Shown here piece by piece: positions 4,027 through 63,969 of a DNA stretch of 64,000 bases. Both the position numbers and the translations under genes were made by a program. The DNA comes from an uncultured Caldilineales bacterium (GTDB lineage Bacteria > Chloroflexota > Anaerolineae > JAAEKA01), in NCBI GenBank assembly GCA_937907455.1, contig CALESQ010000111.1, forward strand, positions 21,454-85,453. Direction: 5' to 3'. Each line of letters begins with the position of its first letter. The first letter of the stretch is position 1. The notes below the pieces were generated by a model that did no database searches, was not told the DNA's origin, and saw only the letters and a list, made by a program, of their open reading frames with translations.

Positions 4027-4256
4027 CCGCATCAACTGGCTACCGCAAGCTGACGACCCAGTATCTGGAAACCGTAGACGGGCACGGCCACGCCAGCGCC
4101 GTTAGACTGCTCAGTGATGCCGAAGCGCTGCTGCGTGACGCGCTGGACTTGTTCAGCGGCACCCACGAACTTTGCGATGAAGTCGAGTCGCCTGAGTGGA
4201 TTTGGCGCTGGCGCGTGTTGGAGTTGCTAGATGACGCCCAGGAGGTGCAGATATGA
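4023..4256 (+). CDS. hypothetical protein (77 aa)
   Basis: ATG 4023 overlapping upstream stop; in frame with track ORF 3828..4256. Confidence 0.5.
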   Translation: MTASTGYRKLTTQYLETVDGHGHASAVRLLSDAEALLRDALDLFSGTHELCDEVESPEWIWRWRVLELLDDAQEVQI

Positions 4257-4501
4257 CCCACCCGACCGACCCCCGCGACGCCGCGATTGACGCTATACTC
4301 GCCAATCGCGGCTTGCCGTTCACAACGTACACTGATCCGTCAAGCGCCAGCCTGCAACGGCGGCTCGGTATCTCCCAGCGCGCCATCGTCAACGCCTGTA
4401 AGCGCAACGGCTGGCCCTGGCGCAAGGTCTACGGCCGCATCTGGGTGTGCGCCGACTTCGAGCAGCGCTGGGCGGAGATCACCGGAAAGGACAGCATTTA
4501 A
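4253..4501 (+). CDS. hypothetical protein (82 aa)
   Basis: ORF track; ATGA overlap. Confidence 0.6.
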   Translation: MTHPTDPRDAAIDAILANRGLPFTTYTDPSSASLQRRLGISQRAIVNACKRNGWPWRKVYGRIWVCADFEQRWAEITGKDSI

Positions 4502-4782
4502 TGCGTACCCTACCCCATAACGCCCTAGAGCTAGGCCCCCTGGCCGGCCCTTGGATCGACGCGACCGCCTTCGACGAACACCACGTGACGCTGGCCGAAT
4601 TAGATGCAGCCGCCGCTTTCCCGGCTGACTGGAGCAGGATTCTAGATGCGCGTCCTTTTACTGGCGTAACGGCTATAATTCACGATTTCGTCCGGCCCCA
4701 TGTGCGCGGCGAGGGCGACGTAATCGAGCACCAAACCATCGTCCACGCCAAGGGACTGGCCACGATCATGGCGTTCGCCTGA
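4501..4782 (+). CDS. hypothetical protein (93 aa)
   Basis: ATG 4501 overlapping TAA of upstream gene; frame of track ORF 4447..4782. Confidence 0.5.
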   Translation: MRTLPHNALELGPLAGPWIDATAFDEHHVTLAELDAAAAFPADWSRILDARPFTGVTAIIHDFVRPHVRGEGDVIEHQTIVHAKGLATIMAFA

Positions 4783-4804
4783 TGCGCGCGGTCGTAATTG
4801 ATAC

Positions 4805-4833
4805 TTGACAGTTTTTGCTTTTGGGTGTATAAT
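4805..4833 (+). promoter_or_regulatory. conserved promoter cassette copy 2
   Basis: TTGACA 4805-4810, N17, TATAAT 4828-4833, then ACTCTTGACGGCACAGAGAGG. Confidence 0.7.
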
Positions 4834-4891
4834 ACTCTTGACGGCACAGAGAGGCCACACCGGCCATCACCCACAGCAAGGAGACCAGACG

Positions 4892-5272
4892 ATGAGCAAC
4901 ACCAGCCGCAGCCTACGCCAAGAGGAAATCGACAGCTACAACCGCCAGCGCTTCATCGACCAGGTGCTGGCGGCCATCGCCAACGGGCGCAAGGTACGCT
5001 TCCTGATCCACAAGCGCAACTACAGCCTGGTCGAGGTGCAGAAACGCACCACTGGAGAGTACGAGTTTCAGGTAGCCGACCGCTCCCGCTACACCTACCG
5101 CATGAGTGACTTCATCCAGTTTCTGGAGACCATCTACGACAGCGGCGCCGAGATCATCAGCCTGACCGGCGAGGCCGAGATCACCGCCGAACGACAGACC
5201 GCCAACGCCGACGCCGAGCCGGATCACGACTACGAGATCGCCAAGCGCCAGGAGGCGCAGAAAGGAGAGTAA
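4892..5272 (+). CDS. hypothetical protein (126 aa)
   Basis: ATG 4892 after CAAGGAGACCAGAC; frame of ORF 4805..5272. Confidence 0.6.
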   Translation: MSNTSRSLRQEEIDSYNRQRFIDQVLAAIANGRKVRFLIHKRNYSLVEVQKRTTGEYEFQVADRSRYTYRMSDFIQFLETIYDSGAEIISLTGEAEITAERQTANADAEPDHDYEIAKRQEAQKGE

Positions 5273-5509
5273 GCCCTGAACACAAACCCCGGTCCCGGAC
5301 AGCCCCGCCGCTCAAACGTAGCCAATCGTGCGACGCGGCGGGGCAGTGGACCGAGACACCGCCGTCGCTGGGTGTGTGCCCAGCCCGATGAAGCGAAAGC
5401 AGAAACGGCACCTTACCACCAGAATGAAGCGGCTGAATAACGAGGCGTCGGGACGCCTACACGTTGATTGATCCCAACGTGAGACTGCGCACCACTTGGA
5501 AATGACCAA

Positions 5510-5645
5510 GCCCGTGTAGCTCAAACGGCAGAGCAGCCACCAGCACTTACAGCCGGGCGATGATCCCTCCCGGACTAAGTAGAAGGCAAGCTGATCACTT
5601 GCTGGCTGAAATGGAAGGTTGGAAGTTCAAGTCCTCCCACGGGCA
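5510..5645 (+). ncRNA. tRNA-like element with a ~63-nt insertion in place of the anticodon arm (interrupted, intron-containing or degenerate tRNA)
   Basis: 7/7 acceptor pairing GCCCGTG (5510-5516) with CACGGGC (5638-5644); D-arm GCTC-AAACGGCA-GAGC (5519-5534); T-arm GGAAG-TTCAAGT-CCTCC (5621-5637, one mismatch); discriminator A; insert 5540-5602 folds into two hairpins (CCGGG..CCCGG; GCAAG-CTGATCA-CTTGC) closed by AGCCA/TGGCT. Confidence 0.35.
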
Positions 5646-18162: not shown

Positions 18163-19812
18163 CTATGGTTTGTTGACTTGCCTGACGACCCACTGTCCGT
18201 CAGGAGTAAGGTTGGTGGCAAAGAAGGCGACCTCATGGCCGTCAGCGGGGCGATATCCCAGCTGAGTTACCCCCTGCCACGTGCTTCCCGCGCGTACATC
18301 CGTCTCGTTGCCGATGGGTGTGTAGCCCGCCTGACGCATGGCAATCTCGATGGCTGAGACAGGGTTGGGCGAGATGACCTGTGCAGTCTTGGCGACTGCC
18401 CAGATCAGCGAACTGCTGGCGTCGGGACTGTTCAACCAAGGCAGGACAGCGGCCAGTTTGTCGCCAGGGCACGAGGTCTGGTTGCCCGGCACATCGCGGT
18501 GGCCCGCCACCGGCAAGGGCGCAGCAGTCCAAGTGGCCCAGCGCCGTGCTGTCTGAAGGACCCGGCGCAGCACGTCCACTTCCTCGACGGTCGGTTCTTC
18601 ACGGACGAAGCTGCCGGCCAGGCAGACGGCGAGGCCGCGGTCGTTGCCAATCGTGTGGGCGTGATAGCTGCGCGTCCGCGGGTCGTTGAGCAGTGAGACC
18701 ATCACCTTGCCACCAAATGAGCGCACGCCGATGTGATAGCCGATCCCCGGCCAGCCGTTGCTGTTGACGTGGTATTGCGCCACGCTCTGCCACGTTGCCG
18801 CCTTCGATGCCTCGGTGTGGTGCAGAACAATGCGGTCGATGGCTGAAAGCGCCCGCTCGTGATAGACCAGTGTCGCATGGCGAGGCAGCGACCTGGATAG
18901 GTCCTCGTAGTCGGCGCCGAACTCTGCCCTGAGCAGTTCTCCCAGCGGGGGCGGCGCGCTGGGTGCGGTCGGCTCATACGAGCCACCCCGCGCTTGAATG
19001 TGTGCATTGATCATGTCGTTCATCTCCCTGTCCACTTCGAAGTCCTCCCAGCCCATGGGGCCGGCCGTGAAGATGGTGGCCGTCAACACGTAGGGGTCTT
19101 TTGCCAACTCGGCATCGAACATGGCCAACTGCTCCATGTAGTGCGCCCGATCTCGGCAGAACGTCCTCCAGCCCCTCTTGGGCATATCGATCACTCCGCC
19201 ATCCACACCACATTCGGTGATCAGCAGTGGGGGCAGCACGATGCCCGCTTCAATGGCATAGCGCGCGTTCAGGCGATAGCGAAAAGCGTGCCATTCGGTC
19301 ATGCCACTTTCCAAATGCGGATAGTCCAACACCCAGTAGCAGTGCTGAGACCAGTAGTCGCAGGCCGCCAACCCACGGGCGATTTCCTGAAAACAGGCTC
19401 TGCGCTGCGCCTCGTCGCCGCCCGGATTGCCCTCGCTCAGGTTGCCGCCCACAAGCTGCAACCCGGCGCCGTGCATCAGCTCGGCCAGGCGGATCGTGAA
19501 CTCGCTCAGCTGGCGGCAAAACGCCAGATCGGCTACCGGCTGCGGCTCGTTGGGCGCCTCCCAAATGCGGATGTATGGCGCGCGGGCGAATGTGGGCTGG
19601 CAGAAGCCGAACCATGCCTCAGCGCCGGCCGCCCCGCGCCTAACCAAGTCATTGCTGTCATTGTCGGGCATGTACACCCGCCCAATGATCTGCTTTCCCG
19701 GCCAACGATTCTCGCTGGGCGGATCCATGACCTTGATCCAGCGCGCTGCGCTGCTGTTACCATCGGCCCAGTTGGGGTGGGCCTGTAAGTGCAACGACAG
19801 TTTACTTGTCAT
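18163..19812 (-). CDS. two-domain endolysin: N-terminal GH5-like glycoside hydrolase (NEP...ITECG) plus C-terminal N-acetylmuramoyl-L-alanine amidase (Amidase_2/PGRP)
   Basis: WEAPNEP and ITECGVDGG catalytic-type motifs; amidase_2 signature HHTEA..GIGYHIG..HRDV..TSCPG. Confidence 0.75.
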   Translation of the reverse strand: MTSKLSLHLQAHPNWADGNSSAARWIKVMDPPSENRWPGKQIIGRVYMPDNDSNDLVRRGAAGAEAWFGFCQPTFARAPYIRIWEAPNEPQPVADLAFCRQLSEFTIRLAELMHGAGLQLVGGNLSEGNPGGDEAQRRACFQEIARGLAACDYWSQHCYWVLDYPHLESGMTEWHAFRYRLNARYAIEAGIVLPPLLITECGVDGGVIDMPKRGWRTFCRDRAHYMEQLAMFDAELAKDPYVLTATIFTAGPMGWEDFEVDREMNDMINAHIQARGGSYEPTAPSAPPPLGELLRAEFGADYEDLSRSLPRHATLVYHERALSAIDRIVLHHTEASKAATWQSVAQYHVNSNGWPGIGYHIGVRSFGGKVMVSLLNDPRTRSYHAHTIGNDRGLAVCLAGSFVREEPTVEEVDVLRRVLQTARRWATWTAAPLPVAGHRDVPGNQTSCPGDKLAAVLPWLNSPDASSSLIWAVAKTAQVISPNPVSAIEIAMRQAGYTPIGNETDVRAGSTWQGVTQLGYRPADGHEVAFFATNLTPDGQWVVRQVNKP

Positions 19813-19830: not shown

Positions 19831-19971
19831 TCATATCCAACTCAGCTTGCACTCAGCACTGAACCTGCGTCGTTTGGCCTTCGGCACGACTTCCGGGTTT
19901 GACTGTACTACCAGTGAGTGGCCGTTCAGTGATCCGTTCTTGCTGACTTTGACCGGTTGCTTGTGTGACAT
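19831..19971 (-). CDS. small basic protein (46 aa) between right IR and endolysin
   Basis: rc ATG 19969-19971 preceded by GAAGGAG RBS; MSHKQPVKVSKNGSL... Confidence 0.4.
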   Translation of the reverse strand: MSHKQPVKVSKNGSLNGHSLVVQSNPEVVPKAKRRRFSAECKLSWI

Positions 19972-20120: not shown

Positions 20121-21995
20121 TTACAACACAAACCCCACGCCGCCCACCGGCCCCCGCAAATCCTGCCAGGACCAGTACGCGGCGTCAGTCAGGTCGAACG
20201 GCTTGACCTTGGGAAAACGGCGCAGCGCCTTCTCCAGGGTGACGTGGGTGCCCAGGACGTGGATGATGCGGCCCCGTTCGTAGTCGGCCAGCATCTGCTG
20301 CGCGCGATGGGCCTTGGGGCCGTGGCCGGCGCCGGCCTTGTCGGAGCGGAACGGCGGCGGGTCGCTGATCCCTAAGCCGGCGGCCGCCTCCCGATAGACG
20401 CTGGCCCAGGTGTCGCCGCCCTGGTCGGTCTCCACGCCCACCGCCTCGGCGCCCAACTCGACCGCCTTGCGGATGGCGCGCTGGAGGGCGTCCTGCGGAC
20501 TGGTGACGTGCTCCCACGAAAACAGGCGGAAGATCGTGCCGTCCGGGCCGATGCCGTCGGCCTGGATGCCCTGGCTGTCCGAGGCGTCGGTGGACGTGAC
20601 AGCCGGGTCTACCCAGACCACGATGCGCACCAGCGCCGGCAGCTCGTCCCAGGCGCAGCGCATGAACTCCAGGTGGTCGAACATGCCGCCGGCAGCCTCC
20701 TCGACCTCGTGCTGGGCCTCGTGCAGGAAGGCCGTCAAGCCCCAGGCGTCGAGCTGCTGCTGGGCGTGCTCCATGCTCTGGCCGACCCAGATCGACTGGC
20801 CGCCGGTGATGACGTAGCGCCCGCCGCGCATCTCGTAGGTCAGGTTGCGCACCGCCGGGTGGGGACCTGAGACGATGCGCTCGCGCAGGAAGTCGGCGCG
20901 GCCGTCGGCCATGCGGCTGAACAGCCCGTTGGGGATAATCAGGTTCTGGATGCCAATCACCGCCACGTCGGGCGAGCCGGCCGGCAGCAGGGACGTGGTG
21001 AGGGTGGTGATCTTCTTGGCCGTGTAGCCGGGGTTGTCCAGCTTGTTGTCCAGGTCATCCAGGCAGTTGTGGGAGAGGCCGAACGCGGTCAGGTAGGTAT
21101 GCGAGGCCGTGGTGATGGGCGCGAAGGTCCTGACGCCGGCCGGCTGGACGCTGCGCACCCGGTTCCAGAAGGCGCCGTTCAGTAGGCCGTAGCCGATCTG
21201 GTCGCCCGGCTCCAGGTCGCGCGCCTCGATCCAGCCGCCGTCTTCAACCACGTTCTTGCGCGCCCAATAGCGGTGTTCAGGCGTCACCACCTCGGCAAAC
21301 GACAGGCCGGCCACCTGCACCTCCAGGCCCTCAGCCTGGCGCAGGCCCAGCAGTCCGGGGTGCTCCTCGACCATCACCCAGCGGCCCATGTCGTAAACGG
21401 GCGTGCCGACCTCGTGGCAGATCAAGTCGGGCCGGTTCTCCTCGACTTTCGAGCCGCGGTAGGCCGTGTCGAAGCCGATGGCGTCCACCGTGAAGCCGCT
21501 GGCCGCGCGCATTCGCTCACGCCGCCAGCCGCGCGTGTTGCCGTACTTGCCCTTCTGCGGCGCGCCCAGCATGGGGTAGAACTCGGCGATGGCCGACGAC
21601 TCCAGCAGCACGGCGATGTTCTCGACCGACTTGTCGGCCAGCTCCTGGGTCTCGCGCACGTACCAGGCGTACTTGCGCACGCCGCGCGCTCCCAGGGCCA
21701 CGGTGGCCATCTCGGCGGAGGACGACTTGCCGCCGCCGCGCGGCCAAATCGCGATGAAGGCCGGCGGGCGCTGGCCCCGCTTTAGCGCCCAGACGTGATC
21801 CCAGAACTCGGCATGGTGGTCGCCGAACTCGAAGCCGACGTAGGCCGGGAACATGGCGCGCAGCCAGCCGGCCCAGTCAGCCGGCGGCGGGTCGATGCGC
21901 TGGGCGCGGCTGCGCGGGTCGATCTCGTCGGCCGCGCGCCGCAGCAGCATGTCGTAGGCCGTCCCGAACTGCGGGAGGAGGGAGGAGACCGTCAT
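20121..21995 (-). CDS. terL: terminase large subunit (ATPase plus nuclease) containing a mini-intein
   Basis: Walker A IWPRGGGKSSS; nuclease-domain similarity; 624 aa immediately downstream of the terS-like gene. Confidence 0.8.
   Translation of the reverse strand: MTVSSLLPQFGTAYDMLLRRAADEIDPRSRAQRIDPPPADWAGWLRAMFPAYVGFEFGDHHAEFWDHVWALKRGQRPPAFIAIWPRGGGKSSSAEMATVALGARGVRKYAWYVRETQELADKSVENIAVLLESSAIAEFYPMLGAPQKGKYGNTRGWRRERMRAASGFTVDAIGFDTAYRGSKVEENRPDLICHEVGTPVYDMGRWVMVEEHPGLLGLRQAEGLEVQVAGLSFAEVVTPEHRYWARKNVVEDGGWIEARDLEPGDQIGYGLLNGAFWNRVRSVQPAGVRTFAPITTASHTYLTAFGLSHNCLDDLDNKLDNPGYTAKKITTLTTSLLPAGSPDVAVIGIQNLIIPNGLFSRMADGRADFLRERIVSGPHPAVRNLTYEMRGGRYVITGGQSIWVGQSMEHAQQQLDAWGLTAFLHEAQHEVEEAAGGMFDHLEFMRCAWDELPALVRIVVWVDPAVTSTDASDSQGIQADGIGPDGTIFRLFSWEHVTSPQDALQRAIRKAVELGAEAVGVETDQGGDTWASVYREAAAGLGISDPPPFRSDKAGAGHGPKAHRAQQMLADYERGRIIHVLGTHVTLEKALRRFPKVKPFDLTDAAYWSWQDLRGPVGGVGFVL
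21066..21419 (-). other. mini-intein (Hint domain, ~118 aa, no homing endonuclease) inside terL
   Basis: starts CHEVGT (Cys1 and Thr6 of block A), block B TPEH, C-terminal block VRTFAPITTASHTYLTAFGLSHN followed by +1 Cys. Confidence 0.65.
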
Positions 21996-29994: not shown

Positions 29995-31272
29995 CTAAAG
30001 GGAAGCGCGCAAAAGACTGTAGTCGTATCCATCACTGCGCTGTAGTAGCGTAAGGTGTTTGTGGTGTACGCTGAAACCGCTAAGAGAAAAAAACGGTGAT
30101 CGACGGATAGTTATCCTACCAACATGCGTACCTGTATGCTTGCCTCTTGGCACAACCGCCTTCACGATGTCACCGGTCTGGTAGCCAAGGTAGCGCTTCT
30201 CATTCCCGCGGTGGCGCTTGGGGAAACCGTACTTGTCAGTTTGGCACATCTGGCGCGTGCCACGTCCGGTCGCCTTGATGCGTAATACCTGCATCTCAGG
30301 GTTCAGCATCACACCCAACCCCGATATACCCACGCACGCCGCGTCGATCCAATGCGCTTTGGGATAGCCGTTTTCGTGCCGGTTCCGGGCGGTACGGCCA
30401 CCGCTGCCCCACTCGACGCGCAGGCCGGTTTGACCAAGCGCGTCAGCGAGGGCGTTACGAGTCGTGTTGACTGATGCCGCATCTCTGAGTGGCTTCTTCA
30501 CTTGCCGCTCGATATTGGCCGCCTTCTCTGGCCCGACGAAGACCTCCAGCCGCTGGTTGCCGCGCTTCTGGTTGCACTCATAGCAGGCCCAGGCCAGATT
30601 GTCGATGCGGTCGGAACCGCCGAGGCTGCGAGGGGTGATGTGCTCGATGGTTCCCCGCACTGCCGGCCGCGCGCCGCAGTAGATGCAGGTGTGGTTGAAC
30701 TTGTGCAGCAGATACTCGCGCACCTCCGTACCTTGCAAGGTGCCCTGTTGGTACTCTACGCCGCTGATCTCCGGGTTGCGCATCGCCTGCACGTCGAACT
30801 TGACGCGCTCTAGGCTGATCATGCTGACTGGCGCAAAACGGCGCAGCCTGCCGACCCAGGTCATTACGCTGTCCACCTTGCTGCGCATCGACGGCGCCAA
30901 CCATCCTTGAAGGCGACGGCGGTTGTCAAAACGAGCGGGGCGGTAGCGGGTCTTGCGGTTGCGCCGGCCGCGCCGCAGTTGCCGTCGCGCTGTCATCTTG
31001 TTAGCCACGTTGGTACGGTGCTGCAACTCAGCAGCCCAGACAACTTCGCCGTTGGTTACAACAGCCAAGCCAGTTTGTTTGCTGCCGGGGTCGATCTTGA
31101 CCTGGACCGGCTGCACGTCGCCATTTTTTCGGTCGTGTAGGATAATGGTAAAAGGGTAGCGCCTGTAGACGCTGGCCCGCCCACTCTTGAGGAGTTCTCG
31201 CGCCCGTGCTGGGTGGCAGGGCATCAGGGGTTTACGGTTCGTATCTAGTACGAAAACTGAGTTTTGTTTCAT
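29995..31272 (-). CDS. iscB: IscB-family RNA-guided nuclease (OMEGA / proto-Cas9; PLMP, RuvC-I/II/III, Arg-rich bridge helix, HNH)
   Basis: NRKPLMPCHPARA (PLMP); KIDPGSKQTGLAVV (RuvC-I); RRQLRRGRRNRKTRYRPARFDNRRR; CIYCG..HITPRSLGGSDRIDNLAWACYECNQKRGN (HNH); HWIDAACVG (RuvC-III); 425 aa. Confidence 0.85.
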   Translation of the reverse strand: MKQNSVFVLDTNRKPLMPCHPARARELLKSGRASVYRRYPFTIILHDRKNGDVQPVQVKIDPGSKQTGLAVVTNGEVVWAAELQHRTNVANKMTARRQLRRGRRNRKTRYRPARFDNRRRLQGWLAPSMRSKVDSVMTWVGRLRRFAPVSMISLERVKFDVQAMRNPEISGVEYQQGTLQGTEVREYLLHKFNHTCIYCGARPAVRGTIEHITPRSLGGSDRIDNLAWACYECNQKRGNQRLEVFVGPEKAANIERQVKKPLRDAASVNTTRNALADALGQTGLRVEWGSGGRTARNRHENGYPKAHWIDAACVGISGLGVMLNPEMQVLRIKATGRGTRQMCQTDKYGFPKRHRGNEKRYLGYQTGDIVKAVVPRGKHTGTHVGRITIRRSPFFSLSGFSVHHKHLTLLQRSDGYDYSLLRASL

Positions 31273-31508
31273 CTTACGATGAACTCACCTTTCGGTGGTA
31301 ACGGTCTCCTCGACAATGTTATCCGAAGGTTTTCGACCAACGCACTGGCTTAACCACTTCACCTGTTTAACGTTGGCCCGCAGAGCGTGGGGCTGGAGAA
31401 GCACCCCACGGTGCCTGTATCATTCTTCGGTAACGTAGCCCGATGGACCTTGCGGCCCCTTGCTGTGTCTGGTTTCACGTCTCCTGTGCGGATTGTCAAG
31501 ACTGCGAG
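31273..31508 (-). ncRNA. omega-RNA/tracrRNA-like scaffold: anti-repeat (plus coords 31472-31508) joined to a ~200-nt structured leader directly upstream of the iscB start
   Basis: 31472-31508 is an imperfect reverse complement (~29/38) of the CRISPR repeat; non-coding, 236 nt; position matches IscB omega-RNA architecture. Confidence 0.5.
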
Positions 31509-31535
31509 TTGTCCATGTTTCGCCTACGTCTTTGC

Positions 31536-31785
31536 GCTCTCAGTCTAGACAACCCGCACAGGCGTGGGTGAAACCTACGTGACCCGAAAAAGGCGGCGCG
31601 CGCCAAGCGGCTCTCAGTCTAGACAACCCGCACAGGCGTGGGTGAAACCTATGCTATCCAGAAAAGCGCGGGCCGCTGCAATGTCTCTCAGTCTAGACAA
31701 CCCGCACAGGCGTGGGTGAAACCGGGCACCAAGTACGATCTAACCAACCTCTCAGTCTAGACAACCCACACAGGCATGGGTAAAA
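31536..31785 (-). CRISPR. CRISPR mini-array: 4 repeats of 38 bp (4th degenerate), spacers 36, 36 and 26 bp
   Basis: repeat CTCTCAGTCTAGACAACCCGCACAGGCGTGGGTGAAAC at 31536, 31610, 31684, 31748 (last has 3 mismatches); spacers unique. Confidence 0.8.
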
Positions 31786-31817
31786 CCATATCGTGCCGGA
31801 ATCATCGTGCCAGAACA

Positions 31818-31847
31818 ATTGTACCACGCCCCCCGCCCTGCTGTCAA
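31818..31847 (-). promoter_or_regulatory. minus-strand promoter (TTGACA-N18-TACAAT) reading into CRISPR array, omega-RNA and iscB
   Basis: rc TTGACA at 31842-31847, rc TACAAT at 31818-31823, in AT-rich leader. Confidence 0.55.
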
Positions 31848-31891: not shown

Positions 31892-32176
31892 TTACCCCAA
31901 ATCCACGCCAGTTACCTCCCCGCGCGCAATCGTAATCTCCGTGAAGATTTGCCGCAATAGCGCGTTGGCCTCCGTCACCGGCGCCGCCAGCAGTCGCTCC
32001 TCCAGGGTGGGCAAGACTTCCGCCAACAGCGCCAGCCGCCCCGCGCGTCGGCGCACCCGGCCGGCCGCGTCGCGCAAGCGCTGAAGCTCCCCTTCCACCT
32101 GGGCCACCTGCGTCGCCGTCTCCCGCTCCCGCGCGTCGAACTCCTCCAGGCTGATGCGGGCGGTCTCGAACAGCAA
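31892..32176 (-). CDS. hypothetical coiled-coil protein (94 aa)
   Basis: ORF track. Confidence 0.35.
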   Translation of the reverse strand: MLFETARISLEEFDARERETATQVAQVEGELQRLRDAAGRVRRRAGRLALLAEVLPTLEERLLAAPVTEANALLRQIFTEITIARGEVTGVDLG

Positions 32177-32317
32177 GATCAGCCGGCCGCGCCGTTCGGT
32201 CAGGCCGGCCAGCTCGCGCGCCAGCGACTCCGCCCGGTCGGCGCCGGCCAGAGGCGGCGGCGCGTCGTCCGGCGTATACTCAGCCAGGATCAGGCGCAGG
32301 TACGTCGAACTTCAGAT

Positions 32318-32346
32318 TTGACAGAGTACGTTATAGTCGCTATAAT
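32318..32346 (+). promoter_or_regulatory. perfect consensus promoter TTGACA-N17-TATAAT
   Basis: TTGACA 32318-32323, TATAAT 32341-32346. Confidence 0.7.
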
Positions 32347-60716: not shown

Positions 60717-63181
60717 GCAGTGCTCTTGATAGCCCAGTTCGCGCCCAGCCGTCGAATCGTCACAGTCTGGTACTGAGCCGTCAGAATGTAGGACGCCGCG
60801 CCGTTGATGGTTGCCGCGCCGTCCGGCTCAATCGCAACCTCGTTCGCGCCGCTGTCGCTCTTGTGGAACGTATATTCCCAATTGCGTGGCTTGGAGGTTG
60901 CGGCTGGTAGATTGATCGTGATCTTGCCGCTCGTCGCGTCGCAGGTATAGAAACGCACGTTGCCGGCCGTCATGCCGCTGTCGCTGCTGTCCACCGCTTC
61001 CCAGCCGGTAGCATCGCCAGCCAGCGCAACCGGCACCCAATAGCCTCCATACCATATGTACACGCCAGCGCCAGCCCCCGGTTCGTAGGTGCCGTTGCTA
61101 TGCAGCAGCCCGCCGTTCTGGATCGTCCCTCCTGGTATGGTTGCGGCAGTGTAGGGCATCGGGTAGATGATCTCGGCGCTCAGGTCAATGCGCGTGTGTG
61201 TGAACGGCGCCGTACCTTCCGCTCGATAGGCCCACAGGTCGATGTACGTCATTTGCTGGTTGGCCGTGTCGTAGCCGCCCACCGCGCGCACGCGGGCACT
61301 GGCCTGGTAGTCGCCCAGCGCGCTCAGCATGGCGCGCGCCCGCTTGCCGGTCAGCGGCTGCGCTTGCAGCAGCAGGATGTGCTCCTCCGGCGTGCCGCCG
61401 TTGTTGATCGCGCTGATCCGGTGGCTAGAGTGATCGTCCGTGGGGCTGGTCCAGAAGGAAACCATCCGGCTCTCGCCGTACTCCTCGCCTGTCACCTCTG
61501 GGTCCTCCGACTCTGGGGTGAAGAACTGCAACCCCTCGGTCGTGTCCAGCCGGATCGCGCCGCTCGGAGACGCCAGCATAGCCGTCCTGATGGCCCAGCC
61601 GCCCACACTCCCCTCGCCGGTGTAGACTTGGCCGGTGAAATGGCCGTCGCCGTTGTAGTCCAGGTAAACCACCGGCGTATCGCCGTTGAACAGGCCCACC
61701 CTGCCCAGCGCGCCGCGCTCGGTGCGAAAGTTGCGAAAGTCCGGGTCGCCGCGCATCATCGTGCCGGCCAGCCAGGTCTTCCACACGCCCGACCCTGGCC
61801 GGTTCTCCAGCGTCAGCGGCCCCCAGGCGTCCACCGCCGACAGGTATTGCGCGCCCAGCCCGTCCACCGAGTAGCCGGCTATGCCGCGGCTGGTGATCAC
61901 GCCCCGCCGCTGTGGGTCGTCCGGGTCGGTGATGACGAACTGCCCGTCGCTCTCGAAAATCAGCGTCCCCTTGACCACCGCCGACTCCATGATGACCGTG
62001 CCATCCATGATCAGCACGCCCGTCTCGTCGTCGTAGCTGACCGAGTTTGCCTGCGGTGGGGGGTTGCCGATGTAGGCATGGACCCCGCCCGTCTCGGTAT
62101 TGCGCAGCACCGCCTTGGCCACGCCGGCCTCGTTGCGCAGCGCAAACGTCGCCCGGTTGTTCACTTCGCCCAAGTCTATCCTGGCGCCCATCGCGTCGCC
62201 GATAGTGAACAGGTCTCGCAGATAGCTGTGCTCTGGCGTGATCTCGATAATCGGGCTGGCCCCACGGTACACCCCCCAGCGCTCGTTTGTCCCGTCGAAG
62301 GTGTTGTGAACGCCCTCCAGCGGGCCGAAGTCGTAGTCGCCGGCCAGCCGCTCGTTTTCGTCCTTGCCAAAAATGCGCACGCGGTCTTTGCCGTCGGAAT
62401 CAGCCACAACGATGTTTGTGTTGCGCAGCAGCAACTCCTCGCGCGTGGCCGAATACATCACATACGTGTCATAGTTGCTCAGGTCGCCGAACGCCATGCC
62501 AAACTCGTCCGTCGTCACGCCGGCCACCCCGTTCAGGTTGCCCAGACGGAAAACGCGCTCTTGTCTGGTGGGCGGGCTGTCGGTCCAGTAGGCCGCGGTC
62601 ATGTTCGGCGCGGCGTTCGAGTTGGCGTGCCGGTTGTCAATCGAGATGTAGCCGATCTCGGTCAGGCCGTTGATCAGCGTCGATACGGCCCACCCCGTCA
62701 CCAGGCCGGCCGGGCTGGTAAATACCCGCCGCGTCACCGGGTAGCGATAGCACACGCCCCCGCCGGGGCACGAGACCACCGTCGCTGCCGCCGTCACCCG
62801 CATGAACTCGATCTGGCCGGCCGTGTCGCTCACCGCCGCCTGCTCGCCCACCGCAAAGATGTCATCGGCCACGGTGATGAGTGTGCCGGTCGCGGTGAGC
62901 GCCGCGGTCAGGTGCGTTGAGTGGGTGAAAACCGTCCAGCCCGTGCGGGCGATGGTATCGGCCGCTTGCAAGTTGCCTATCGAAGACAGGGCAAGCTCCA
63001 CGTCCTCTCCCAGCTCCTGCAACGCGTTCTCGACCTCCAGCGCGTCGAAATAGGCGCCGGTATCCACAATGGGTACATCGACCGCCATTACCAGGCGCGA
63101 CGAGGCGTGTACGCCAGGAGACGCCACTGCGGGGCTGGTGGGGATGCTATCAATGCGGCGGCGAAGATCAGCTTTTGGCAC
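60713..63181 (-). CDS. putative phage tail fibre / host-specificity protein (822 aa)
   Basis: large Gly/Thr-rich beta-type protein; context with the following tail-like gene. Confidence 0.45.
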   Translation of the reverse strand: MPKADLRRRIDSIPTSPAVASPGVHASSRLVMAVDVPIVDTGAYFDALEVENALQELGEDVELALSSIGNLQAADTIARTGWTVFTHSTHLTAALTATGTLITVADDIFAVGEQAAVSDTAGQIEFMRVTAAATVVSCPGGGVCYRYPVTRRVFTSPAGLVTGWAVSTLINGLTEIGYISIDNRHANSNAAPNMTAAYWTDSPPTRQERVFRLGNLNGVAGVTTDEFGMAFGDLSNYDTYVMYSATREELLLRNTNIVVADSDGKDRVRIFGKDENERLAGDYDFGPLEGVHNTFDGTNERWGVYRGASPIIEITPEHSYLRDLFTIGDAMGARIDLGEVNNRATFALRNEAGVAKAVLRNTETGGVHAYIGNPPPQANSVSYDDETGVLIMDGTVIMESAVVKGTLIFESDGQFVITDPDDPQRRGVITSRGIAGYSVDGLGAQYLSAVDAWGPLTLENRPGSGVWKTWLAGTMMRGDPDFRNFRTERGALGRVGLFNGDTPVVYLDYNGDGHFTGQVYTGEGSVGGWAIRTAMLASPSGAIRLDTTEGLQFFTPESEDPEVTGEEYGESRMVSFWTSPTDDHSSHRISAINNGGTPEEHILLLQAQPLTGKRARAMLSALGDYQASARVRAVGGYDTANQQMTYIDLWAYRAEGTAPFTHTRIDLSAEIIYPMPYTAATIPGGTIQNGGLLHSNGTYEPGAGAGVYIWYGGYWVPVALAGDATGWEAVDSSDSGMTAGNVRFYTCDATSGKITINLPAATSKPRNWEYTFHKSDSGANEVAIEPDGAATINGAASYILTAQYQTVTIRRLGANWAIKSTA

Positions 63182-63969
63182 TACGCCTCCTCATCCTCGA
63201 TGGCATAAAGCGCTTCGCGTAGATGGTATTGGGTGCCCGGCCACAAGCCCTCGACGCTCTCCAGGTCTAACGCCAGCCAGCGCTCCGAGGCGTCCGGCAT
63301 TCCCACGGTTTGCTCCTCGCCGCGGTTGTCGAAGACCAGCGTCACGTTGCGCCCGGCGTCGTTGCGGTAGTGCAGGTAGCGGTGCCGGCGCACGCCGTAC
63401 AAGTCGGTGAAAATCGCTCCTGTGCTGGCCTCGCCCTCAGCCGTCACTGGGTTGATGTAGGCGGTCGTCGTCGCGCCTAGCGCCTCTAGGTTGTCCTTGA
63501 TGGTTACAATCTGGCGGGTGCCGGGGCCAGGGTTGGCGTTGCCCCACGCGTAGTCACCGTGTTGCCAGGTCTCGAAGTTGGTCCAACCTGGCAGGGTCTC
63601 GACGGGCGCCGGAGCCTCATACAAATAGTCTAGCCGCAGCGAAACGACATCATCCTCTGTGGTGCTGCCCTGCGACGTGACGGTCAGCACGTACTCCTCG
63701 CCCGGCGTGAGCGTGCCAGGATATGTGTCGAGATCGACCAACCCCGACCACTCGCCGTTGTCAACCGACTGGTCGAAATCCAGCCCTGGGCCGGCGGTGG
63801 TAGGCCGGCCAGTGCGCCGGTGCAGAATGCCCGTGCCGTTGATGCCGATGAAGGTCGAGACCCAGGGGTCGCCGCCGTCGTCGGCGGGGTGGTAGGGCGC
63901 CACCTGGAAGAAGCTGTAGGCCAGGTAGCGGCAGCGGTGGATCATCGTGCCGGCAAATTTGGTCTCCAA
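63181..63969 (-). CDS. putative tail-associated protein; N-terminus may extend beyond the annotated ATG
   Basis: ORF track; minus strand. Confidence 0.4.
   Translation of the reverse strand: METKFAGTMIHRCRYLAYSFFQVAPYHPADDGGDPWVSTFIGINGTGILHRRTGRPTTAGPGLDFDQSVDNGEWSGLVDLDTYPGTLTPGEEYVLTVTSQGSTTEDDVVSLRLDYLYEAPAPVETLPGWTNFETWQHGDYAWGNANPGPGTRQIVTIKDNLEALGATTTAYINPVTAEGEASTGAIFTDLYGVRRHRYLHYRNDAGRNVTLVFDNRGEEQTVGMPDASERWLALDLESVEGLWPGTQYHLREALYAIEDEEA

Follow-up and report, generated by a model that had tools for sequence, protein, structure and literature searches.

A probable CRISPR-associated IscB module without transposon ends in a circular, temperate-phage-like genome

Huge phages carry CRISPR-Cas systems (clustered short palindromic repeats that are regularly interspaced, and CRISPR-associated proteins) without Cas1 and Cas2, and CRISPR-associated IscB was reportedly described by Altae-Tran et al. 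in 2021 (Science 374:57) with the same arrangement as the locus presented here, an iscB gene with an array upstream of it (29995-31847, minus strand) in a 64,000-nucleotide stretch of DNA from an uncultured Caldilineales bacterium (hereafter, the window). One CRISPR-associated IscB has been characterized biochemically: DelIscB (457 amino acids), which comes from an unassigned aquatic metagenome fragment, is preceded by a non-coding RNA whose repeats, spacers and anti-repeat include a hairpin of direct repeat and anti-repeat, and cleaves DNA with 16-nt guides and an NAC target-adjacent motif (TAM) (Zhang et al., 2025, PMC12660989). More than 16% of the fragments with IscB/HEARO genes are viral or prophage fragments, and the IscB MG35-1 prefers 24-nt guides (PMC9755519). 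Virus-borne mini-arrays, for which a role in inter-virus conflicts has been proposed, need host Cas proteins (Medvedeva et al., 2019, PMC6858448). As CRISPR-associated IscB and viral IscB have both been described already, our locus adds an example to a described class and no new principle; its added value lies in the phage setting, the lost transposon ends, the dedicated promoter, and the existence of close relatives with shorter stages of the array. A partial literature search retrieved no paper on a phage-borne IscB with an array, which is not proof of novelty.

We consider it likely that the locus is a CRISPR-associated IscB module devoid of transposon ends and residing in a circular, temperate-phage-like genome of ~101 kb. 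Like DelIscB, it combines a small IscB effector (425 versus 457 amino acids) and no adaptation genes with an upstream non-coding RNA made of repeats, spacers, an anti-repeat and an omega-like scaffold, including a natural single-guide hairpin. The likeness is one of arrangement, and unlike DelIscB the locus lies in a phage-like genome and has sister genomes with shorter versions of the array. With canonical OMEGA (obligate mobile element-guided activity) IscB systems such as OgeuIscB, KraIscB-1 and MG35-1, it shares the protein family, the catalytic residues, a full-length RF02033 scaffold and a guide located 5' of this scaffold. Yet, those systems use one guide derived from transposon-flanking DNA and possess a short first stem (P1) with a transposon-end hairpin, whereas P1 in the window is a ~31-bp repeat:anti-repeat duplex accompanied by three extra guide-repeat units, and neither transposon-end hairpins nor TnpA were found at the locus. 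Type II systems, and especially the II-D Cas9d (Aliaga Goltsman 2022, PMC9755519), resemble it in their RuvC domain with inserted HNH, the spacer-repeat order of the CRISPR RNA (crRNA), an anti-repeat like that of the trans-activating crRNA (tracrRNA), and a long duplex that RNase III probably cleaves; unlike them, the window IscB has no recognition (REC) lobe, cas1, cas2 and csn2 are missing from the locus, and the tracr part is fused to a large omega-type scaffold. Finally, the virus-borne mini-arrays (PMC6858448) are likewise very short arrays in viral genomes without adaptation genes, but the window locus brings its own effector, and while their spacers match related viruses, no target was found for the spacers here.

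The iscB gene (29995-31272, minus strand) encodes 425 amino acids, and its product matches the NCBIfam model of the RNA-guided endonuclease IscB (NF040563, guided_IscB) over residues 6-315 with 435 bits against a cut-off of 175, the Pfam families RRXRR (E 6e-75) and HNH (E 5e-11), and solved IscB structures in the PDB (E 1e-41 to 1e-31). A preliminary description of this DNA, drawn up by a model from the sequence, had announced an IscB of this length with all its domains, and each of them could be located: PLMP (residues 15-18), RuvC-I (D61), the Arg-rich helix (96-106), RuvC-II (E155), HNH (H211 and N234, with CxxC motifs at 196-199 and 230-233), RuvC-III (H307 and D310), and a C-terminal (TAM-interaction) region conserved up to residue 418. 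The motifs line up with those of the solved IscB chains. In an alignment with 16 homologues (54-85% identity), little or no variation is seen in the PLMP motif, both CxxC motifs, residues D61, E155, H211, N234, H307 and D310, and the C-terminal part up to residue 418. The protein is an IscB with intact RuvC (D/E/H/D) and HNH (H and N) active-site residues, and is predicted to cleave double-stranded DNA under the guidance of an RNA and next to a TAM. Cas9 or Cas9d identity, which the preliminary description had suggested to assess by profile comparison, was rejected, as the protein has just 425 amino acids and scores far under the cut-offs of both the Cas9d model NF049971 (53.7 bits versus 375) and the Cas9 model TIGR01865 (15.2 bits versus 100).

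Upstream of iscB, on the same strand and beginning 264 nt from its ATG, lie four direct repeats of 39 nt with periods of 74, 74 and 64 nt. From the gene outwards, these are repeat R1 (31537-31575), spacer S1 (31576-31610, 35 nt), R2 (31611-31649), S2 (31650-31684, 35 nt), R3 (31685-31723), S3 (31724-31748, 25 nt) and the promoter-proximal R4 (31749-31787), all on the minus strand. R1 to R3 are identical and R4 carries three substitutions, all transitions; the four repeats and the degeneracy of the last one had been recognized in the preliminary description, while its boundaries (38-bp repeats, spacers of 36, 36 and 26 bp) had to be shifted by 1 nt. A search of the window with up to 10 mismatches allowed retrieved no further copy of the repeat, which therefore does not belong to a dispersed repeat family. 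A 28-nt loop (31509-31536, minus strand) separates R1 from an anti-repeat of 38 nt (31471-31508, minus strand) that pairs with ~31 of the 39 repeat positions. A search for inverted repeats recovered 26 nt of it, with 88% complementarity and the same distance of 28 nt to R1. Cofolded as separate strands, repeat and anti-repeat reach -53.4 kcal/mol with ~31 bp (shuffled anti-repeats: -20.2 +/- 3.1), and the continuous hairpin of R1, loop and anti-repeat reaches -54.8 kcal/mol (shuffles: -27.9 +/- 3.2; z = -8.5). R1 and the anti-repeat are thus predicted to form a natural single-guide-like hairpin. R4 still pairs with the anti-repeat (-49.3 kcal/mol), since two of the three substitutions result in G.U wobbles and the remaining one is located in an internal loop. 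We did not count these substitutions as a sign of selection for pairing, since by a rough estimate ~20% of transition triples would be equally compatible with it.

The anti-repeat leads directly into a tracr-like omega-RNA scaffold that extends to the iscB start codon (31273-31470, minus strand). The Rfam HEARO model (RF02033) matches 31298-31574 on the minus strand over its full length (model positions 1-211) with 103.2 bits against a gathering score of 83 (E 3.9e-20). The alignment starts inside R1, at 31574, so that R1 provides the 5' strand of P1: model positions 1-8 correspond to the start of R1 (GUUUCACC) and their partners are found at 31478-31471. A 54-nt insertion is required in this alignment, exactly at the repeat:anti-repeat extension, and a transcript of 340 nt, reaching from S1 up to the ATG, folds more stably than expected (z = -4.25). 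The anti-repeat between gene and array, the ~200-nt scaffold up to the ATG and the single-guide-like duplex had all been put forward in the preliminary description, and bear up well under folding and covariance analysis. Taken by its architecture, with array, anti-repeat and omega-type scaffold all present, the assignment of the locus to the CRISPR-associated IscB is supported. The same data speak to another possibility, that of an independent host-type CRISPR array read from the plus strand and merely located beside iscB. The repeat indeed ends in ...GGGTGAAAC (GTGAAAC) in this orientation, an ending that may resemble the 3' handle of some class 1 repeats, and nothing else favors such an array. 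Yet, the HEARO model assigns R1, read on the minus strand, to the 5' strand of P1, the 38-nt anti-repeat is just a 28-nt loop away, and no strong promoter faces the array except the one on the minus strand. Moreover, three related loci (L003, L080 and L081, see below) have the homologous repeat as the very 5' end of their omega RNA, and the Pfam results for the 60 window ORFs (open reading frames) scanned contain no class 1 cas genes, which makes a plus-strand array extremely unlikely.

The leader of the array (31788-31847, minus strand) harbors a sigma-70-type promoter, TTGACA-18-TACAAT with a TG extension (31847-31818, minus strand), which matches 11 of 12 consensus positions and stands in a region with 5 promoter-like sites versus 0.8 expected. 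It had been noticed in the preliminary description as well, as reading the whole unit, and array, anti-repeat, scaffold and gene do share its strand. Transcription would start ~21-24 nt before R4. In the mechanism that we favor, a single transcript from ~31811 would comprise R4-S3-R3-S2-R2-S1-R1, the loop, the anti-repeat, the scaffold and iscB. S1-R1-loop-anti-repeat-scaffold would directly constitute a natural single guide RNA, with S1 as its guide in cis, S2-R2 and S3-R3 would be crRNAs that find their pairing partner, the anti-repeat, in trans on another transcript, and the leader with R4 might provide a further trans-pairing guide. Trimming of the long duplex would probably fall to the RNase III of the host, by analogy with type II systems, and IscB would be led by the repeat-nearest 16-24 nt of the spacer (a length chosen by analogy with DelIscB, 16 nt, and MG35-1, 24 nt) to TAM-adjacent DNA, where HNH and RuvC would cut both strands. 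Without Cas1 and Cas2, new guides would not be acquirable in the canonical way, and the most likely way in which the array grew is that the omega-RNA 5' module was duplicated or recombined. That the anti-repeat is extended to match the distal part of the repeat, and that R1 to R3 are identical beside unrelated spacers, argues that the upstream units are used.

The repeats might instead have a regulatory role, as decoy 5' modules titrating the anti-repeat or as attenuators tuning the expression of omega RNA and IscB. Every upstream repeat competes with R1 for the one anti-repeat, and S1 and S2, in RNA sense, each present a short GC hairpin followed by a U-run. These hairpins comprise only 3-4 bp, though, a terminator scan retrieved no minus-strand terminator in the array, and the spacer lengths and the repeat:anti-repeat geometry fit the functional arrangement of the DelIscB type. 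We therefore hold a regulatory role of the repeats to be very unlikely.

The locus can be compared with that of a sister phage, L003 (European Nucleotide Archive ERZ27241287 k141_345942, 102,443 bp), which is collinear with the window at ~80% nucleotide identity and whose IscB is 86% identical to that of the window. The omega-RNA scaffolds of the two are identical at 184 of 198 nt (93%), while the synonymous sites of iscB differ at 47% (pS 0.47), and the ratio of nonsynonymous to synonymous changes (dN/dS) is 0.13, which together indicate strong purifying selection on the protein and maintenance of the RNA by selection as well. L003 possesses two copies only of a 27-nt repeat, 60 nt apart, and its omega RNA has the second copy as its 5' end. 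P1 forms but a short hairpin in L003 (-21.6 kcal/mol), where the 45-nt stretch that corresponds in the window to the loop plus the distal 17 nt of the anti-repeat is missing. Two more distant relatives on phage-like contigs, L080 and L081 (IscB 63% and 64% identical to the window protein), display this two-repeat arrangement too, with the same omega-RNA start (GTTTCACCCAC) and a repeat that equals the omega-RNA 5' end; L080 moreover has its own promoter (TTGACA-17-TATGCT). Two repeats with a short P1, found with IscB proteins of 63-86% identity, thus stand against four repeats with a 17-nt extension of the anti-repeat in the window.

A remnant of a large serine recombinase (31898-32230, minus strand) is found on the far side of the array promoter, ending ~45 nt before it. 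It is the equivalent of residues 432-542 of an intact 542-aa recombinase in L003 (L003 4820-6448), with 50% identity, and has no catalytic N-terminal part. Beyond it, a perfect consensus promoter (TTGACA-17-TATAAT, 12/12; 32318-32346, plus strand) points away from that of the array, so that two strong divergent promoters ~470 nt apart enclose the recombinase remnant.

We call the element that carries iscB a temperate-phage-like genome, of ~101 kb. The window is part of the JGI (Joint Genome Institute) contig Ga0181821_1000926 (101,006 bp), its position 1 being contig position 81049, and the contig ends meet at window positions 19958/19959, between the genes for an endolysin or amidase (18163-19812) and for the large terminase TerL (20121-21995, E 1.5e-36), both detected with PHROGs. 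As the window spans these ends, its source treats the genome as circular. Further PHROGs matches in the window comprise a ParB-methyltransferase, a replication initiator, a DnaB helicase and FtsK, a Mom-family protein was found with Pfam, and the 10 kb preceding the window encode a Phage_Mu_F protein and a protein of 1639 amino acids; by its gene content, the ~101-kb genome around iscB is phage-like. This gene-content survey covers 60 scanned ORFs of the window, which gave 22 Pfam families in total, and the genes called in the further 10 kb, all within ~70 kb of the genome. No Cas1 or Cas2 appeared in either set, in keeping with the phage setting without cas1 and cas2 claimed in the preliminary description. 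Neither did a transposition gene, and the 60 scanned ORFs gave no match to the Y1 transposase TnpA (PF01797). A megablast search with 24 kb around the locus gave no match in INPHARED.

A search of the spacers against phages and plasmids, suggested in the preliminary description, brought no credible match: with blastn, S1 to S3 gave nothing significant among INPHARED phages (best E 0.3, for the GC-rich 5' part of S1) and E values of 1 or more among PLSDB plasmids. The exact repeat-proximal 20-mers of S1, S2, S3 and the leader have no match in IMG/VR, nor does that of S1, the only one searched there, in the GTDB genomes. Fuzzy 16-20-mers of the guides match the window and all 82 fetched loci at chance frequency only. 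The 18 repeat-proximal nucleotides of S3 recur with 3 mismatches at window positions 63221-63238 (plus strand), inside an ORF (63181-63969), probably by chance since ~0.1 such matches are expected, and S2 matches the iscB gene of L028-L030 with 2 mismatches, again at chance level. Homing into an 'empty site' of the sister phage was considered and discarded, as neither the guides of the window nor those of L003 match the other genome.

The fetched loci offer a broader view of how such arrays come and go. Relatives of 70-82% identity (L005/6, L052-L059, L079) have a single omega RNA in phage-like contexts, with genes for an NrS1-like polymerase, FtsK, GIY-YIG and Arc among their neighbors. In L052, L055-L059 and L079, a conserved hairpin (CCCC.CGSCTAAAGGS..GGGG) followed by TCCCGGAGC is located ~30-80 nt after the ORF, and a similar hairpin with the TCCCGGAGC motif also lies within the 5' part of the omega RNA; we infer that these are the ends of IS200/IS605-type transposons. 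Such hairpins are absent in the window, L003, L080 and L081, where copies of the repeat are found upstream instead. In L081, a cluster of five tRNA genes (4250-5413) begins inside the last iscB codons, which leaves no room for a transposon end. At ~50% identity, L007, L026, L027 and L029 possess arrays (2-5 repeats) that run into the omega RNA, the last repeat forming its 5' end, and in L023 a separate anti-repeat is located at a distance of 158 nt from the array. None of 14 genomes of cellular relatives (Ktedonobacteria, Chloroflexia and cyanobacteria) has an array. L029, with three repeats, and L030, with no array and only a 10-nt duplication of the omega-RNA start, do not differ at all in their IscB genes and omega RNAs (100% identity; L029:1-430 versus L030:100-560), which implies that arrays in this family arise and vanish quickly and repeatedly. 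Moreover, the left flank of the L026 array (38-300) is a sequence found ~85 nt further upstream in L030. This suggests that insertions or duplications, occurring locally and more than once at the omega-RNA end of the element, give rise to the arrays. Patterns of the repeat and of the conserved omega RNA retrieved nothing from IMG/VR and JGI metagenome contigs, a result of little weight as the source contig lies outside these collections.

Several points weigh against an array of working guides in a module settled in its phage. No protospacer was found for any guide in INPHARED, PLSDB, IMG/VR, GTDB (S1), the window or the fetched loci, so that nothing points to a target of the guides. Between S1 and S2, 16 of 35 positions agree (permutation p ~0.01), as do 11 of the 17 repeat-nearest ones (CUUUU..GG.U..C.UA, p ~0.0007, in a stretch chosen post hoc); this likeness could reflect units that were duplicated and diverged rather than acquired spacers, or two variants of one target. 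Relative to a gene that both genomes share, the IscB unit is placed differently in L003 and in the window, and mobility may therefore not be fully lost. The survey of cas genes covers ~70 kb of the 101-kb genome, and the processing, the pairing in trans and the TAM are all features that we infer.

Some of these points would agree with a selfish OMEGA element of the IS200/IS605 type that rides in the phage, its array being what local duplications or nested insertions happened to leave at the omega-RNA end, its spacers fossil flanks, and its nuclease serving the retention or homing of the element without any function for the phage. The closest relatives (70-82%) are ordinary IscB units with a single omega RNA, likewise in phage-like contigs, the last array repeat of L007, L026, L027 and L029 is the omega-RNA 5' end, and L030 has no array next to an IscB that is 100% identical to the L029 protein. 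The differing positions of the unit in the two sister phages, the similarity of S1 and S2, and the lack of both adaptation genes and protospacers in our searches fit this explanation as well. On the other hand, no TnpA was detected among the 60 ORFs scanned, the end hairpins of the single-copy relatives are absent here, and identity is 100% among R1 to R3 but the spacers diverge at ≥54% of their positions. The 17-nt extension of the anti-repeat matches the distal repeat and would be pointless unless the upstream repeats are in use. Two repeats are found again and again, in L003, L080 and L081 (IscB identity 86%, 63% and 64%), and the unit has a strong promoter of its own. We accordingly rate a purely selfish passenger as unlikely, and continue to favor the phage-borne CRISPR-associated IscB module.

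As for the purpose of this module, the candidates are defense of the phage or lysogen against rival elements, homing, and purely selfish persistence. Our leading guess is the cutting of rival mobile elements or rival phage genomes, an anti-competitor role like the one proposed in the preliminary description, to which the spacer searches lent no support. In a bolder version, which we offer as a possibility but a doubtful one, the phage lineage would have domesticated an IscB midway from omega RNA to crRNA plus tracrRNA, with guides arising without Cas1 and Cas2 by duplication and divergence or by recombination, and being used to cut, or home into, rival phages. If the guides are used, the locus would represent a compact, self-contained RNA-guided nuclease module of ~1.9 kb, with a 425-aa effector and a natural single guide, that requires no host Cas factors and that a phage carries in its own interest. 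Along with the two-repeat sister loci, it would then form a natural ordered series for the split of an omega RNA into crRNA and tracrRNA. The series would also test the growth of arrays without Cas1-Cas2, a question so far argued mostly from phylogeny. On the practical side, the protein would be a further small candidate genome editor.

Elsewhere in the window, a tRNA-like gene (5510-5645, plus strand) reaches 38.6 bits with the Rfam tRNA model (gathering score 29) and has 72 nt in place of the 9-nt anticodon loop; it was not called by ARAGORN, and no intron family matched it at E values up to 0.1. The 60 scanned ORFs also include two further HNH-domain proteins, a CHAT-domain protein and two N6/N4 DNA methyltransferases, and PADLOC found an SspH-like match among the window ORFs (E 1e-24).

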